NCBI GenBank assembly: GCA_020635995.1
Contig: JACJYS010000001.1
Span: 512,712 to 576,711 of the forward strand
Reading direction: 5' to 3'
DNA from: Chitinophagales bacterium
GTDB taxonomy: Bacteria > Bacteroidota > Bacteroidia > Chitinophagales > UBA8649
Length of the DNA: 64,000 bases
A program made the position numbers and the translations under genes. Every line of letters starts with the position of its first letter. Position 1 is the stretch's first letter. This document shows, piece by piece, positions 433-57,560 of the stretch. The notes under the pieces were generated by a model, which saw only the letters and a list, made by a program, of their open reading frames with translations, did no database searches and was not told where the DNA came from.

Positions 433-530
433 TACCGATTGTTAATATTATATTTAGTACAATAATGAATTGACTATTATATATTCCTAATCGGTATAAC
501 TAAACATTGTAAAGCTTCAATTTCTAAAAA

Positions 531-960
531 TTAAAAACATATCACTCCGTTCTTCAAACAGTTTAATTTTTTACGGAGTTTTCGGTTAATGGGTACCCCG
601 CTTACAAACTTAAGGTGCACTTTTAACTGACCTTAATCAAAAATACGTTAGGAAATGATGTAAAACAGGCATCCAAAATGAATGAAATTATAAAACAATA
701 AACAGACAAATTAGTATGCTCCTTCAATTGAAAATACTTTAGTAAAACTGAAATTGAGCATACATTAATTTGTCATCGTCTGTTTTATGGCATTTTAGCA
801 TTTTTGATTACAGTCTTGATTTTTTGTTACTTTTGTATCAAGACAAAAGTAAAAGACTACGAGCTGTAACTCAAATTACTTAAACGTCCAAAAAATTCTA
901 TTTCAGAACATAATTTATTGGTATAAGACGGATGGTCATAAAACAAATAAAAATTTTTAA
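531..960 (+). repeat. copy A (5'-truncated) of a dispersed ~0.5-kb structured non-coding element
   Basis: Aligns by eye at roughly nine positions in ten with 43636-44037. Lacks the 5' module. Ends at the anmK ATG. Confidence 0.85.
803..835 (+). promoter_or_regulatory. candidate promoter inside repeat copy A (TTTG, 21-nt spacer, TACTTTTG), facing anmK
   Basis: Motif match only. The same arrangement is conserved in copy B (43901-43933, TACCTTTG). Confidence 0.35.
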
Positions 961-2033
961 TGTCAAATAAGTATTACGCCATAGGTTTAATGTCGGGTAG
1001 CTCATTAGATGCTTTAGATATGGTTTATGCATCTTTTACATACTCTGATAAGTGGAATTATGAAATACTTAAAACAAAAGGTGTTTCTTTAAATACTTGG
1101 TCTAATATTTTACCTAATGCAATAAATTTCACCAAAAAAAATTTAGATAATTTAAGCCTAACATTTGGAAATTTTATAGGAGAAGAAACGCAAAATTTTA
1201 TAAAAGAAAATAATATAGAGCAGATAGATATTGTGGTTTCTCATGGACACACTATTTTTCATTATCCCGAAAAAGGAATTACTTGCCAAATAGGAGATGG
1301 GCAAGCCATAGTAGATATTTTGAAATTACCGGTTTTAAATAATTTACGACAAAAAGATATAAATGCAGGAGGGCAAGGAGCACCTATTGTACCCATTGGA
1401 GATTTGCACTTATTTTCTCAGTACAAATTTTGTTTAAATATTGGTGGAATTGCCAATATTAGCATTAAACAAAAAGATAAAATTATAGCTTATGATATTG
1501 CCGTAGCCAATCAAATATTAAATTATTATAGTGATATGTTAGGGGCTGATTTTGATACTAATGGAAATTGGGCAAGAGAAGGAGTTATTAATTTTGAGCT
1601 AATAAAACAGTTGGAAGAATTAGATTTTTATAAAAAAGAAGCACCTAAATCTTTAGACAACGGCTATAAGGAGGAAATAAAAAAAGTGATACATTTTTAT
1701 AATTTATCTCCTAAAAATGCTTTAGCTACATATACGCATCATTTAGCAGATATAATAGCCAAAGAAGCTAATAAATATTGCATTACAAAAAATGATGAGA
1801 TGCTTATAACTGGAGGTGGAGCGTATAATTCCTATTTAATTGAATTAATTGCAGAAAAATTTAACGGAAAAATTGTTGTTCCTACTTCTAAAATTATTGA
1901 AAACAAAGAAGCCTTAGTGATGGCTTTTATGGGTGTGTTGTATTTAAGAAATGAAGTAAATGTGCTGGGTAGTGTAACGGGTGCAGAGTATGATACTGTT
2001 TGCGGAGAGCTGTATAATTTTAATAAAAATTAA
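960..2033 (+). CDS. anmK: anhydro-N-acetylmuramic acid kinase
   Basis: 357 aa. The N-terminal GLMSGSSLDALD and the GGQGAPIVP motif are typical of AnmK. Confidence 0.9.
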   Translation: MSNKYYAIGLMSGSSLDALDMVYASFTYSDKWNYEILKTKGVSLNTWSNILPNAINFTKKNLDNLSLTFGNFIGEETQNFIKENNIEQIDIVVSHGHTIFHYPEKGITCQIGDGQAIVDILKLPVLNNLRQKDINAGGQGAPIVPIGDLHLFSQYKFCLNIGGIANISIKQKDKIIAYDIAVANQILNYYSDMLGADFDTNGNWAREGVINFELIKQLEELDFYKKEAPKSLDNGYKEEIKKVIHFYNLSPKNALATYTHHLADIIAKEANKYCITKNDEMLITGGGAYNSYLIELIAEKFNGKIVVPTSKIIENKEALVMAFMGVLYLRNEVNVLGSVTGAEYDTVCGELYNFNKN

Positions 2034-43408: not shown

Positions 43409-43516
43409 TTTTAGAATAATTTATTTATAGATGTATATAAATAGAACAAATAACGGACACAAATATCTTAAATAAAACTGATAAACCTGTTTTTAGGTAT
43501 AAAAAAAGAGGACTTT

Positions 43517-44037
43517 AATACTAATTGTTTTTGTAAAAGGAATTTGGGATTCCGTATAAATTTTTCCGTTTCACTACAAAATTTTAGGATGACGCCCCCG
43601 ATATGATGATTTTTTTGAACTTTTAGTTCAAAAAAATCATCTCTCCGTTCTTCAAACAGTTTAATTTTTTACGGAGTTTTCGCTTAATGAGTGCCCCACT
43701 TGCAAACTTAAGGTGCACTTTTAACTGACCTTAATCAAAAATACGTTAAGAAATGATGTAAAACAGACATCAAAAATGAATGGAATTATAAAACAGTAAA
43801 CAGACAAATTAGTATGCTCCTAAAAATAAAAATACTTTAGGAAGACTGAAATTGAGCATACATTAATTTGTCCTCGTTTGTTTTATAGCATTTTAGTGTT
43901 TTTGATTACAGTCTTGACCTTTGGTTACCTTTGTGTCAAGACAAAGGTAAAAGGAATACAAAGTGTAACTAAAATTACTTAAACGTCCTAAAATACTATC
44001 TTTAAGTATAAAGAATTGGTGTAAAACAATTTTTAAT
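43517..44037 (+). repeat. copy B (full length) of the dispersed structured non-coding element
   Basis: Shares 43517-43767 with the reverse complement of 57303-57560, and 43636-44037 with 531-960. Contains six or more strong stems and no conserved long ORF. Confidence 0.85.
43546..43594 (+). repeat. decayed REP-like unit GGG-ATTCCGTA...TAGGAT-GACG inside repeat copy B
   Basis: Counterpart of the perfect unit at 57477-57527. Confidence 0.6.
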
Positions 44038-44043
44038 ATTGAA

Positions 44044-45282
44044 CTACATTTCTATTTCTATCATATTCCTTGTTATGTCCTCCATATCTTCGCGTTTGCG
44101 TATTAAATGGTCTTGCCCATTATAAATAAGCACTTCTGCGGGTCTAAAACGCGAGTTGTAATTGCTTGCCATACTCATACCGTAAGCACCGGCATTATGA
44201 AAAGCTATAATATCGCCTTCATTAACTTCTGCTATTTTTCGGTCGGGAGCCATTGTGTCGCTTTCGCAAATATAGCCCACTACAGAATATATACGCTCTA
44301 TACCTTGTGGGTAGGTTACATTGCTAATTTCATGGTGGGCATTGTATAATTTAGGGCGAAGCAAATGATTCATTCCTGTATCTAAACCTACAAATACCGT
44401 AGCGGTGGTTTGTTTTACTACATTTACTTTAGCTATAAAAATACCGGATTCACTAACTAAATATTTTCCGGGTTCAAAAAATAAATCTAATTCTTTGCCG
44501 TAGTTTTTACAAAATTCATTAAATCTTTTGTTTATTTTTTTACCTAATTCATTTACATCTGTAGTAATATCATCATGCCAATAAGAAACTTTAAAACCAC
44601 TTCCTAAATCTATAAAATCTAAATCGGGAAAATCTTGGGCAATATCAAATAAAATTTCTGCTCCACGTATAAACACATCAACATCTAAAATATCGCTACC
44701 CGTGTGCATGTGCAGTCCTCTTACTTTTAGTTTTGTGTGTTCTACTATTCTCATTACATGACGAAGCTGATGTATAGAAATACCAAATTTAGAGTCAATA
44801 TGTCCTGTACTAATTTCGTAATGCCCACCTGCCATTATATGAGGGTTTATTCTTATGCACACAGGAATAGTATTGCCATATTCATGCCCAAACTGTTCAA
44901 GCAAAGGAATATTATCTATGTTAATGATAACACCTTTTTCTACAGCCATTTTAACTTCGGCTAAAGAAACACAGTTGGGCGTGTATATAATTTCTTCCGG
45001 TTTAAAACCGGCTTTTAATCCTAAAAGCACTTCTTGGTAAGAAACGGTATCTAATCCTGCTCCTGCTTTTTTTAAAAGTTTAAGTACATTAATATTACTT
45101 AGAGCTTTTGCGGCATATTTTATCTTAGTGTTTTTATTAAAAGCTTTTTTTAGCTTATTGTATTGATTAACAATAACATTGGCATCATAAATATAAAGTG
45201 GTGTGCCGTATTTTTCGGCTAAATCGGTAATTTTTATTCCACCAAAATAACTTTCGTTGTTTTTAACTTCTATCTGTGTCAT
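44044..45282 (-). CDS. lysA: diaminopimelate decarboxylase
   Basis: 412 aa. Has TPLYIYD, the YAAKA PLP-Lys region, HMHTGS and GAYGMSMASNYN. Confidence 0.92.
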   Translation of the reverse strand: MTQIEVKNNESYFGGIKITDLAEKYGTPLYIYDANVIVNQYNKLKKAFNKNTKIKYAAKALSNINVLKLLKKAGAGLDTVSYQEVLLGLKAGFKPEEIIYTPNCVSLAEVKMAVEKGVIINIDNIPLLEQFGHEYGNTIPVCIRINPHIMAGGHYEISTGHIDSKFGISIHQLRHVMRIVEHTKLKVRGLHMHTGSDILDVDVFIRGAEILFDIAQDFPDLDFIDLGSGFKVSYWHDDITTDVNELGKKINKRFNEFCKNYGKELDLFFEPGKYLVSESGIFIAKVNVVKQTTATVFVGLDTGMNHLLRPKLYNAHHEISNVTYPQGIERIYSVVGYICESDTMAPDRKIAEVNEGDIIAFHNAGAYGMSMASNYNSRFRPAEVLIYNGQDHLIRKREDMEDITRNMIEIEM

Positions 45283-45305
45283 AAGCGTGCAAAGGTAATA
45301 TCAAA

Positions 45306-54818: not shown

Positions 54819-57215
54819 CTATTTCTTTTTTTCTTTTCTTTTCTTTGCGTCTTGCTCTTTGTCAACAAGTTTCTTGCCAAAAAAATCTATATTAAAAGCT
54901 AATATTGGCAATATTCCCATTTGATATTTGTAGTCTATTTTGCCTGTATCTTTGTTATAAAACTCTCGTAATATGTTTTTATAATTTACAAAATTGGCTA
55001 AATCTAAAGAGAGTGTCCAAGAAAAATTTCGTTGGTTTTTCTTATAAGCAATTCTAAAATCGGGTCTAAAATAATTTTTGTATCGCTGTGTAAAAGCTAA
55101 GGAATCTATTTCCACTTCTTCATCTGCTATTTTTGAGGCATTTTCGTCTATTGGGGTATAATTAAACCCACCGGAGTATTGCAAACGCATACCTAATTCT
55201 AAAGAATTATTTTTCTTAAACTGAAATTCTTTGCCACCCATTAAAGCTAATCCAAAACGATTATCGTAAGCTGTAGAATACCATTTTTTGTCAATAGTTC
55301 GGTAAGAAGATTTAAAAACGGTAGCATTAAAATTTAAAAACCAATTTTTACTGTAGTATTTTTCTATATTTATATCTACGCCATAGTTCATACCCACACC
55401 TTTGCTTACTAATGAATCTAAAGCAAAACCATCTCTATCATTTAGCATCATATAGGTAGTGCCTGTTTGTGGCGTAATAGGCAAATGAAAAAGATATTGG
55501 AAGTAGGGTTCTACTTTTATTTTTAAATTATTAATAGGTAGCACTTCGTAGCCCAGTACAAAATGATTGTTTTTAATAAGTTTTAAATTTCTATTAGGAA
55601 ATGTATTGGGTATAGTTTTGCTCTCTGTAAAATAAGAGCCCAAAGGTAAATGCTGACTGTGCAAGCCATAGGCAAAAGTTAGGGTGTGGCGTTTACTTAT
55701 TTTTTGCTGAATAGAAATTCGGGGTTCTGCAAAAACAGAATTGTTTAAGGCTAAATATAAACCATGCACGCCACCTACGATGGTGGTGGTGGGCGTAGGT
55801 CTGTATTGCATTTGCACAAAAGGCTGTAGCAACGTAGTAGTTCCTTTTCCTTGTATTAATAAGTCTGTTTGGTTGGTTAAATTATTTAGTTCTGTTTCTT
55901 TAAACTTATAAAAAATTTGATGAGCTTCTAATCCTGCTTTTAAGTTTAGTCCTGCTTTTATTCTTAAATTGTAGGTAGAGTTTAGTCCTATTCTTGAATC
56001 TCGGTAGGCTCTGTATTTAAAATTGTGAAATTGAATATTGTTGCTCAGTGTATCGTAACTGTCAGTTATATCATTAAAAGAGCCGGCTACAACCGTTTTA
56101 ACGTAAGATTTTTTATTGATAAGTTGCGTCCACGATACGCCAACAATTCCCAAATTAGTTACAAAATCTATTTGAAGTTTATCGGAATAGCCTTCCCATT
56201 TTGTAGAATCTTTTTTGGCATAAGTAATTTCTGAACTCAAGCCTCCCAAGCCAAAAATATTAATATAAGCTTTCTTTTTAGTAGGTACATTAATGTTAAA
56301 AGCTACATCTTGAAAAACATTTTCTGTGTTTTCTCCCACTACGTTTAAGCCTATTTTATTAAGCAAACCTAAGGTAGAATATCTATAATTAAACAAGTAA
56401 GATGCTTTAGATTCTTTTTTAAAAGGTCCTTCTGCACCAAACTCTAAACCTATCATGCCCGCTTTAAAAGAAAACTCGTGGCGTTCATTATTTCCTTTTC
56501 GGTAAGAAATATCAAAAACTCCGGCTAAGGCATTTCCGTATTCTGCGGAAAAAGCCCCGGTAGAAAAATCGGAACCCCCCATTAAATGAGGCGAAAGTGC
56601 CGTAATACCACCACCCGAAGAACCCGGACGAGAAAAGTGGTTTACGTTAGGAACATCTATGCCTTCTAATCGCCAAAGTACGCCTACGGCTGAGTTGCCT
56701 CTTATCATCACATCATTATTGTTGTCTTGGTTGCTCATTACTCCGGGCGAGTTTAGTGCCACCCTGCCGGGGTCGTTTATGCTTCCGGCAAACCTATTAG
56801 TTTCTTTTATACTAAAAGATTTGGTGCTTATTTGTAAGCTTTCATTTTTTGGTAATCCTTGTTTTTTTGCCGTTACTACCACTTCTTCAGTTTGGTTAAC
56901 CATTTCTTGCATTTGTATATCTAAAGTTAGCTCTTTACCGGAGGTAAGTGTAAGTAAACCAGATGAATAGGGTTCGTATCCTAAATAACTACACTGCACA
57001 TTCACTCTGCCTACAGGCACATTTTTTAGCTTATAATATCCGTCAAAATCTGTGGTGCTTGAAATAATATCTTCTCCATTTTTAATAAAAACTGTAGCAC
57101 TGAGGAGTGGTTGTTGGGTTACTCCGTCAAGCACTCTTCCTTTTATAGTTTGGTTACTTTGAGCAAAAGAAAGCATAGAAAGTGTAGAGAATAAAAAAAA
57201 GTAAAATAATTTCAT
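54819..57215 (-). CDS. TonB-dependent receptor with N-terminal carboxypeptidase-regulatory-like domain
   Basis: 798 aa. Signal peptide, a CRD (IKGRVLDGVTQQPLLSATVFI), a plug and a 22-strand-type barrel. Last strand ...LAFNIDFF is followed by a 19-aa Lys-rich tail. Confidence 0.85.
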   Translation of the reverse strand: MKLFYFFLFSTLSMLSFAQSNQTIKGRVLDGVTQQPLLSATVFIKNGEDIISSTTDFDGYYKLKNVPVGRVNVQCSYLGYEPYSSGLLTLTSGKELTLDIQMQEMVNQTEEVVVTAKKQGLPKNESLQISTKSFSIKETNRFAGSINDPGRVALNSPGVMSNQDNNNDVMIRGNSAVGVLWRLEGIDVPNVNHFSRPGSSGGGITALSPHLMGGSDFSTGAFSAEYGNALAGVFDISYRKGNNERHEFSFKAGMIGLEFGAEGPFKKESKASYLFNYRYSTLGLLNKIGLNVVGENTENVFQDVAFNINVPTKKKAYINIFGLGGLSSEITYAKKDSTKWEGYSDKLQIDFVTNLGIVGVSWTQLINKKSYVKTVVAGSFNDITDSYDTLSNNIQFHNFKYRAYRDSRIGLNSTYNLRIKAGLNLKAGLEAHQIFYKFKETELNNLTNQTDLLIQGKGTTTLLQPFVQMQYRPTPTTTIVGGVHGLYLALNNSVFAEPRISIQQKISKRHTLTFAYGLHSQHLPLGSYFTESKTIPNTFPNRNLKLIKNNHFVLGYEVLPINNLKIKVEPYFQYLFHLPITPQTGTTYMMLNDRDGFALDSLVSKGVGMNYGVDINIEKYYSKNWFLNFNATVFKSSYRTIDKKWYSTAYDNRFGLALMGGKEFQFKKNNSLELGMRLQYSGGFNYTPIDENASKIADEEVEIDSLAFTQRYKNYFRPDFRIAYKKNQRNFSWTLSLDLANFVNYKNILREFYNKDTGKIDYKYQMGILPILAFNIDFFGKKLVDKEQDAKKRKEKKK

Positions 57216-57302
57216 TCAGTATGTTGGATTGGTTAAATCAAAACTACAAAAGTTTTTTTAAATAAAAACACCTGTTTAATTATAATAAAAAAATTATAAA
57301 TA

Positions 57303-57560
57303 TCTGTTATTACATCATTTCTTAACGTATTTTTGATTAAGGTCAGTTAAAAGTGCACCTTAAGTTTGCAAGTGGGGCACCCATTAACCGAAAACTCCGT
57401 AAAAAATTAAACTGTTTGAAGAACGGAGTGATGATTTTTTTGAACTAAAAGTTCAAAAAAATCATCACATTAGGGGCGTCATTCCATAAAATTTTGTAGT
57501 GAAACGGAAAAATTTATATGGAATCCCAAATTCCTTTTACGGAAACAATTATTAAATTGA
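57303..57560 (-). repeat. copy C (3'-truncated, inverted) of the dispersed structured non-coding element
   Basis: The reverse complement is near-identical to 43517-43767. Ends about 88 nt upstream of the TonB-dependent receptor start, in the same orientation as that gene. Confidence 0.85.
57477..57527 (-). repeat. REP-like hairpin unit GGG-ATTCCATA...TATGGAAT-GACG inside repeat copy C
   Basis: 8-bp perfect arms with family flanks. Confidence 0.8.

Follow-up and report, generated by a model that had tools for sequence, protein, structure and literature searches.

Matched base changes in the palindromic unit of a dispersed intergenic repeat from a Bacteroidota genome

Two intergenic regions of the 64,000-nt stretch of DNA analysed here (hereafter the window) share a 40-nt sequence with two overlapping inverted repeats, and in each of these a C:G pair of one copy is matched by a T:A pair in the other. 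The question that this locus raises is what such matched changes mean: whether they betray an RNA structure, and with it a switch that acts on an adjacent gene, or whether they have another origin in the history of a repeated sequence. The host is a member of the Bacteroidota, as indicated by window genes for T9SS sorting domains, PorP/SprF proteins and a CarboxypepD_reg TonB-dependent receptor, and the organism that carries the element is detected in wastewater and activated-sludge runs.

The palindromic unit and its composite repeat

The unit and the larger repeat that contains it are laid out in the window as follows.

43911..43950, plus strand: 40-nt palindromic unit, copy B, of the B-type sub-family
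43911-18 (GTCTTGAC) and 43935-42 (GTCAAGAC), plus strand: arms of stem 1 in copy B, 8 bp
43925-34 (TTACCTTTGT) and 43941-50 (ACAAAGGTAA), plus strand: arms of stem 2 in copy B, 10 bp with a 6-nt loop
43919-24, plus strand: spacer of copy B, 6 nt, the sole unpaired stretch
813..852, plus strand: 40-nt palindromic unit, copy A, of the A-type sub-family
813-20 (GTCTTGAT) and 837-44 (ATCAAGAC), plus strand: arms of stem 1 in copy A
827-36 (TTACTTTTGT) and 843-52 (ACAAAAGTAA), plus strand: arms of stem 2 in copy A
43499..44035, plus strand: composite repeat copy B in the lysA-nadA spacer, boundaries +/- ~15 nt
Modules of copy B: module 0, ~43503-43630; module 1, 43631-43770; module 2, ~43770-43910; the unit; a variable right part, 43954-~44030
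533..960, plus strand: composite repeat copy A (modules 1 and 2, unit and right part), between a cytochrome c gene and anmK
57300..57560, minus strand: partial copy C, modules 0 and 1 only, without the unit
43727..43910, both strands: long imperfect hairpin of module 2, inner stem GACAAATTAGTATGCTC / GAGCATACATTAATTTGTC
43605..43641: perfect 16-bp hairpin of module 0, GATGATTTTTTTGAAC-TTTTA-GTTCAAAAAAATCATC, also in copy C

Stems 1 and 2 are perfectly complementary in copies A and B alike, and their positions and letters are exactly those given in the initial annotation of this DNA. That annotation had counted seven substitutions in 45 nt, with two C:G/T:A exchanges among them; the exchanges stand, but a recount gives 6 substitutions in the 40 nt (43918, 43919, 43923, 43929, 43935 and 43946) plus a 1-nt indel at 43954, 3' of the unit. 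Four of the 6 make up the two exchanges from C:G in B to T:A in A, at pairs 43918:43935 and 43929:43946, and the remaining 2 (43919 and 43923) fall in the 6-nt spacer. All changes between A and B in the unit are GC>AT. At 15%, the unit has diverged further than modules 1-2 (~9%), yet not one pair has been broken.

The 3' arm of stem 1 consists of the stem 2 loop together with 2 paired nt of stem 2, so that the two helices are mutually exclusive in full, as had been proposed from the first. The compact pseudoknot offered as the other possibility does not survive the geometry: the coordinates leave connecting loops of 0 nt (between the stem 2 5' arm and the stem 1 3' arm) and -2 nt (the 3' arms overlap), which makes a full H-type pseudoknot impossible. 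Calculated RNA hairpin energies for stem 1 versus stem 2 are -9.6 versus -12.3 kcal/mol in B and -8.6 versus -8.9 kcal/mol in A, with the same ranking under DNA energy parameters, and the two hairpins are predicted to be nearly isoenergetic. A third stem is possible between 43917-23 and 43942-48; because ACCTTTG occurs twice, the G>A change at 43946 also 'compensates' the C>T change at 43919. A model with stem 2 alone is simpler, having one compensated pair and leaving 43918 and 43935 as spacer and loop positions.

The composite repeat is ~400-520 nt long, modular and intergenic, with 87-90% identity between A and B over ~400 nt. An extra upstream module of ~110 nt is common to B and C, and over 140 nt the identity of copy C (57441-57300, minus strand) to A and B amounts to 95-96%; copy C shows that the element is modular. 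It ends 85 nt upstream of the TonB-dependent receptor gene (54819-57215). Self-complementarity of the element yields z-scores of -4.6 and -5.2, with no strand difference, and a hairpin near its left end, CTCCGT...ACGGAG at 43645-76, is unrelated in sequence to stem 2 (43925-50). Directly 3' of the unit (43953-43966), ~12-15 nt are hypervariable, followed by a conserved AACTnAAATTACTTAAACGT and later by ACGGAT(A/G)GTCATA. Rfam searches of the element returned chance-level hairpin matches only, at gathering and permissive thresholds alike; searches of it for tRNA, tmRNA, sigma-70 promoters and intrinsic terminators found none, and a check for spurious ORFs across the stems found no predicted protein.

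Other repeated sequence lies close by. Left of copy A, at window positions 435-505, is another module, ATTATATATTCCTAA(T/G)CGGTATAA, inside a hairpin ACCGATT...AATCGGT, and this module recurs close to the tdk stop at ~915-951 of L005, an unrelated contig from a metagenome; intergenic DNA in this lineage has the look of a mosaic built from several repeat modules. A second strain, represented by contig L019 (1-218, aligned to window 43495-43712), is 98.8% identical overall and 96.8% identical in the locus B element, where it has the letters of copies A and C at several module-1 positions, a distribution which suggests gene conversion among copies.

Insertion, copy number and sub-families

Relatives of the host preserve both loci in the empty state. 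At locus B, lysA and nadA of a relative with ~90% DNA identity (L021) are separated by 140 nt that include a terminator hairpin, versus 636 nt in the window. This spacer (L021 3495-3634, aligned to window 43409-44043) holds the GC-rich terminator hairpin AAAAAAAGAGGACTTAAAGCCCTCTTTTTT, whose left half, AAAAAAAGAGGACTT, is the sole remnant in the window, at the left junction of element B. At locus A, the cytochrome c gene and anmK lie 52 nt apart in L022, whose AnmK is 94% identical, and 68 nt apart in a more distant relative (L025/L026), versus 528 nt in the window. The repeat is missing from both orthologous spacers of close relatives and is therefore an insertion; in all, ~70 kb of relatives' DNA contained no copy of it. 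Alignment of window 930-975 with L022 148-215 has the native 52-nt spacer and the first anmK codons replaced at locus A, and the protein begins MSNKYY in the window and MPIIKNKYY in L022; by this comparison, the upstream region and the start codon of anmK are now supplied by the element.

The manner of insertion has left few marks. TTTAATA flanks B on either side and is found a single time in the empty site, in AT-rich sequence, and ~20 nt of the empty site have no counterpart in the filled one; a target duplication at B is hinted at by these letters. Comparison of the left end with the reverse-complemented right end gave shuffle-level scores for all boundary choices, so that no terminal inverted repeats were found, and a Pfam scan of the 29 window ORFs found no transposase, RAYT, TnpA or TnpB. 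Plasmid and phage searches returned no match to the element. Neither did two pattern scans of genome contigs, the second with a pattern that included upstream composite sequence and so could not reach solo units. Viral scans returned only an unrelated conserved 20-mer in phage genes: GTTTTTGATTACAGTCTTGA (window 43898-43917) is found exactly in a conserved coding region of ~10 marine viral contigs (L007-L018), and because the sequence around it is unrelated the match is a coincidence, although one that can mislead short-pattern searches.

The neighbourhood of anmK differs among these genomes in other ways as well. Between anmK and an exonuclease gene, L022 carries a toxin-antitoxin-type pair, Gp49 (HigB-like) and HI1420-downstream (HigA-like), at 1270-1857, where the window has 56 nt (2033-2089). 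Downstream of anmK in L025 (11895-18337) lies a restriction-modification island with RE_Alw26IDE, a DNA methylase, Eco57I and HTH regulators, which is absent in the window.

Copy number was estimated from contig depths in three activated-sludge metagenomes relative to a baseline of unique window genes (44100-47400; contig depth ~15, 70-78 and ~60-62 in runs X3, X8 and X14, respectively). Contigs identical to A over 811-851, a span with all six variable sites, have depths of 360, 1809 and 1504 in these runs, or 23.7, ~24 and ~24 times coverage; contigs identical to B over 43899-43949/52 have depths of 249, 1114 and 981, or 16.4, ~15 and ~16 times coverage. All of these are depths of single contigs, as binned depths sum overlapping 31-mers. 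The ratios are constant across two studies, which indicates fixed copy numbers in one genome, with about 24 exact units of the A-type and about 16 of the B-type, ~40 or more copies.

Haplotypes were typed from Logan contigs by their distance to four reference haplotypes, among the matches listed. This typing is blind to variants within ~20 nt of a contig end and leaves most intermediate contigs ambiguous (one contig of 66 nt, for example, has three possible states), and haplotype information consists mostly of contig depths, the full unit sequences read being n=4. A third abundant type differs from B solely at the two spacer positions. Among the matches listed, confidently typed right-half contigs read either C,G,G or T,A,A at 43929, 43935 and 43946, and this linkage is sub-family ancestry. 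Because the exact A and B types are themselves amplified, A and B are representatives of sub-families rather than independently diverged copies, and the 'compensation' consequently happened once, in the founder of a sub-family, and was then copied.

The unit also travels apart from the composite. In a 3,949-nt contig of X8 the sequence 812-852 is internal with both flanks unlike the composite, and many contigs diverge at 811-815 and at 849-853, from which it follows that the 40-nt unit also occurs solo, with its borders at the outer ends of the stems. Short-read assemblies of the same organism break at the element edges, a fragmentation that the repeat explains.

What the matched changes can and cannot support

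A metagenome scan recovered only two further copies of the unit, L005 and L006, both on contigs that end inside the element. L005 has C:G in stem 1 and T:A in stem 2, and L006 has T·G in both stems. Across the four readable units (A, B, L005 and L006), pairing on the plus strand is 100% C:G, T:A or T·G and never C·A; in RNA of the opposite strand, the one read through from the neighbour gene, T·G of L006 becomes A·C. No contig identical to L005 or L006 was found among the matches listed for four deep runs, and the fully paired types are abundant. The four-gamete pattern at 43918/43946 implies recombination among copies or recurrent transition.

The statistical weight of these pairs depends on the null. 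When stems are predicted from B alone across the whole repeat, stems of at least 8 bp contain 2 compensated pairs versus 0.28 expected (P=0.03) and stems of at least 7 bp contain 3 versus 0.48 expected (P=0.013), under a null in which the 54 A/B substitutions were randomly re-placed on bases of the same kind. Within the 40 nt, a uniform null gives P=0.014 for two or more compensated pairs. Each stem has one double change among the four sequences, with 7/8 pairs invariant in stem 1 and 9/10 in stem 2. Linkage across copies is no evidence of pairing, because 43935 is linked with 43929 and 43946 no less closely than the proposed partners are with each other. RNAalifold applied to A+B gives compatible pairs on both strands by construction, and we discarded it as evidence. 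With P ranging from 0.01 to 0.09 by null, and with four sequences having no covariation power, the covariation is modestly above chance. The initial annotation had taken the two exchanges as independent compensatory changes in support of its stems; at these P values, and as changes that define sub-families, they are no statistical proof of an RNA structure. Of the further copies that it asked for, L005 and L006 keep their pairing, but shuffles of the 3' letters on the four sequences, which are blind to phylogeny, reached the observed values in 228-231 of 500 trials.

Could ~14% divergence in a T-rich sequence of low complexity with overlapping CTTTG repeats have yielded two matched transitions by chance? 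Whole-element MFE folds would allow it, in that ~0.9 compensated pairs are expected by chance and no excess is seen on either strand; so would the local null within the 40 nt, in which the types of the mutated bases are preserved, with P=0.09 for two or more pairs, and so would the fact that one G>A change 'compensates' two different C>T changes. We nevertheless consider coincidence very improbable, as the six changes spare all 18 pairs (P~0.002, post hoc), two further copies keep every pair and the abundant identified haplotypes are fully paired.

Mutation alone might also keep the arms matched. Intra-strand template switching (quasi-palindrome correction) would copy a change from one arm to the other whether or not the hairpin has a function, and the process is documented to create and to maintain perfect hairpins (PMC8794818, PMC5453318). 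In both exchanged pairs the partners are 17 nt apart within short perfect palindromes, T·G intermediates exist (L006), and the uniform GC>AT direction is the mutational direction expected in an AT-rich genome. With four sequences this upkeep is indistinguishable from selection, and it leaves unexplained why the amplified types are fully paired and the intermediates undetected, unless amplification followed correction by chance; we give it a small share of the probability.

The genes around the unit bear on whether it acts in cis. Copy A has anmK downstream and co-oriented, whereas the neighbours of B (lysA), L005 (tdk) and L006 (an MBL-fold hydrolase gene) are convergent; the neighbours are functionally unrelated and stand in either orientation, and all copies seen are intergenic. 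The gene-specific cis-regulatory switch that the initial annotation implied is difficult to square with ~40+ copies per genome next to unrelated genes, with a solo unit and with the absence of the element from the spacers of relatives. A cis-acting RNA switch, in which exclusive hairpins (or a pseudoknot) regulate the adjacent gene, would gain from the near-equal energies and mutual exclusion of the hairpins, from 100% pairing on the plus strand when G·U is included and from the presence of the element in a metatranscriptome. It must contend with dozens of recently inserted copies in both orientations, with pseudoknot loops of 0 and -2 nt, with the want of an Rfam match and of significant covariation, and with both 5' arms lying upstream of the transcript if this starts at the predicted promoter described below. 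We regard such a switch as highly unlikely.

That promoter is recognizable at the level of its motif, and the TAnnTTTG box that had been noticed at the stem 2 5' arm is indeed present, with TTTG 21 nt upstream.

43901..43933, plus strand: match to the Bacteroidetes promoter consensus, TTTG-N21-TAccTTTG, in copy B; the predicted -7 box coincides with the stem 2 5' arm
803-835 on the plus strand and 875-844 on the minus strand: matches to the promoter consensus in copy A, at motif level

Stem 2 contains TTACYTTTGT twice in inverted orientation, so that a -7 box is predicted on both strands, and both stem 2 arms of A read TTACTTTTGT in the 5'->3' direction, each on its own strand. Matches to the full consensus number 7 in the window, 3 of them inside units, versus 2.9 expected for 64 kb. 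One might propose a mobile promoter, with a palindromic pair of -7 boxes (TAnnTTTG) and a -33 TTTG contributed by module 2, of which the stems would be a by-product; the element would then spread promoters that read outward. Beyond the consensus matches, this proposal could appeal to locus A, where an insertion that replaced the spacer and first codons means that expression of anmK must start in the element or pass through it. In B, L005 and L006, by contrast, the plus-strand box faces the 3' end of a convergent gene. Moreover, 43929 and 43946 occupy the unconstrained 'nn' of the -7 box, and promoter function by itself therefore offers no explanation for the matched change between them, a point on which the initial annotation was right.

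Transcription adds no weight to the proposal. In one metatranscriptome (X5), whose contigs carry no strand or end information, the depth is 51.7 for the A-type unit, 20.5 for the B-type unit and 3.8-9.9 for lysA, so that RNA depth per copy (51.7/24 and 20.5/16) is not above that of lysA. An RNA contig of X5 spans the lysA 3' end and the right part of the element as far as 43923; copy B is therefore transcribed at least by minus-strand read-through from lysA. That the element is a mobile promoter and its stems incidental seems to us unlikely, though less so than an RNA switch.

A unit that is multi-copy and modular, inserted relative to close relatives, divided into sub-families and preserved in its complementarity with T·G intermediates is, in our judgement, probably the palindromic core of a species-specific, recently amplified and dispersed intergenic repeat of REP/BIME-like kind, whose foldability has been kept. 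The part maintained would be a hairpin, most simply that of stem 2, in the form of single-stranded DNA or of RNA. Foldable copies may have been the ones propagated, as in REP/RAYT systems or in the DNA-hairpin recognition of IS200/IS605-type elements; single-stranded recognition of the latter type would make complementarity a direct requirement of mobility. Alternatively, foldable copies may persist as RNA hairpins in read-through transcripts. A more ambitious version, which we think improbable, would join the promoter to the repeat: a tag-less REP-like family of Bacteroidota in which exclusive hairpins and palindromic -7 boxes form a mobile bidirectional promoter/insulator whose folding is selected. 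If this were true, the module would rewire expression wherever it lands, for example through the anmK spacer and start codon at locus A.

The amplified, foldable repeat that we favour carries a more general caution, namely that repeat copies which represent amplified sub-families can differ by matched changes that mimic RNA covariation. It also documents a recently expanded, modular, palindrome-bearing family in one abundant, uncultured activated-sludge lineage of the Bacteroidota, a phylum in which such elements are poorly catalogued. Should the hairpin be needed for mobility, or the promoters be active, the family would be useful for the study of recent genome dynamics and of promoter capture.

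Comparison with known systems

The motif in the unit resembles the Bacteroidetes sigma-A promoter (-33 TTTG, -7 TAnnTTTG, spacer of 19-21 nt) in its full consensus and 21-nt spacing, overlapping the stem 2 5' arm, and departs from it in that the box is part of a palindrome and hence present on both strands. Unlike a riboswitch, the unit has no consistent position upstream of functionally coherent genes (anmK is co-oriented; lysA, tdk and the MBL-fold gene are convergent; one unit is solo).

With MITEs and modular repeats (Correia/NEMIS of Neisseria; BOX and RUP of Streptococcus pneumoniae; the Porphyromonas gingivalis MITE, PMC4596501) the composite shares a length within ~100-500 nt and a non-coding, structured, modular and dispersed character; like them, it represents an insertion when compared with close relatives, and it may include an outward-facing promoter. 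It differs in having no terminal inverted repeats and a target duplication that is only hinted at, and it has no sequence similarity to entries in the collections searched. The ends of IS200/IS605 elements and their non-autonomous derivatives (PATEs) likewise have no terminal inverted repeats and place a hairpin near one end, whereas the present element has no similar hairpin at its left end, no match to Rfam RNA families and no TnpA/TnpB found in the window. Two further candidates were set aside: the RNA-guided transcription systems of Bacteroidetes (PMC13472631), as no such genes occur in the window, and a core site for a tyrosine recombinase. The latter, suggested by a 10-6-10 architecture, is implausible at dozens of copies per genome.

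The closest likeness is to the REP/BIME class, whose short palindromic units are repeated tens to hundreds of times, either singly or as parts of mosaics. The present unit is a short palindrome (REPs measure 20-40 nt), is intergenic and present in tens of copies, occurs solo or embedded in mosaics with other repeated motifs, and is often found downstream of convergent genes and within read-through transcripts. It also falls into sub-families with C:G, T:A or T·G at one pair per stem, a pattern known from REP families, whose sub-families have different stem residues that still complement each other and in which G·T pairs are frequent (PMC3733652). The differences are nonetheless clear. The unit carries no GTAG or CGTC (TGTC/CCTC) tag on either strand and no conserved tail by the hairpin, the flanks of stem 2 being TTTGG/AAAGG in B and TTTTG/AAAGA in A and those of stem 1 TTACA/AAAGG; in place of one stem-loop or a head-to-head dimer it has two interleaved inverted repeats (X..Y..X'..Y'); no RAYT gene lies within the 64-kb window; and the host is a Chitinophagales-like member of the Bacteroidota. 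The repeat is thus ordinary in kind and new as a family: a REP-like family that stands outside the described GTAG/CGTC super-families.
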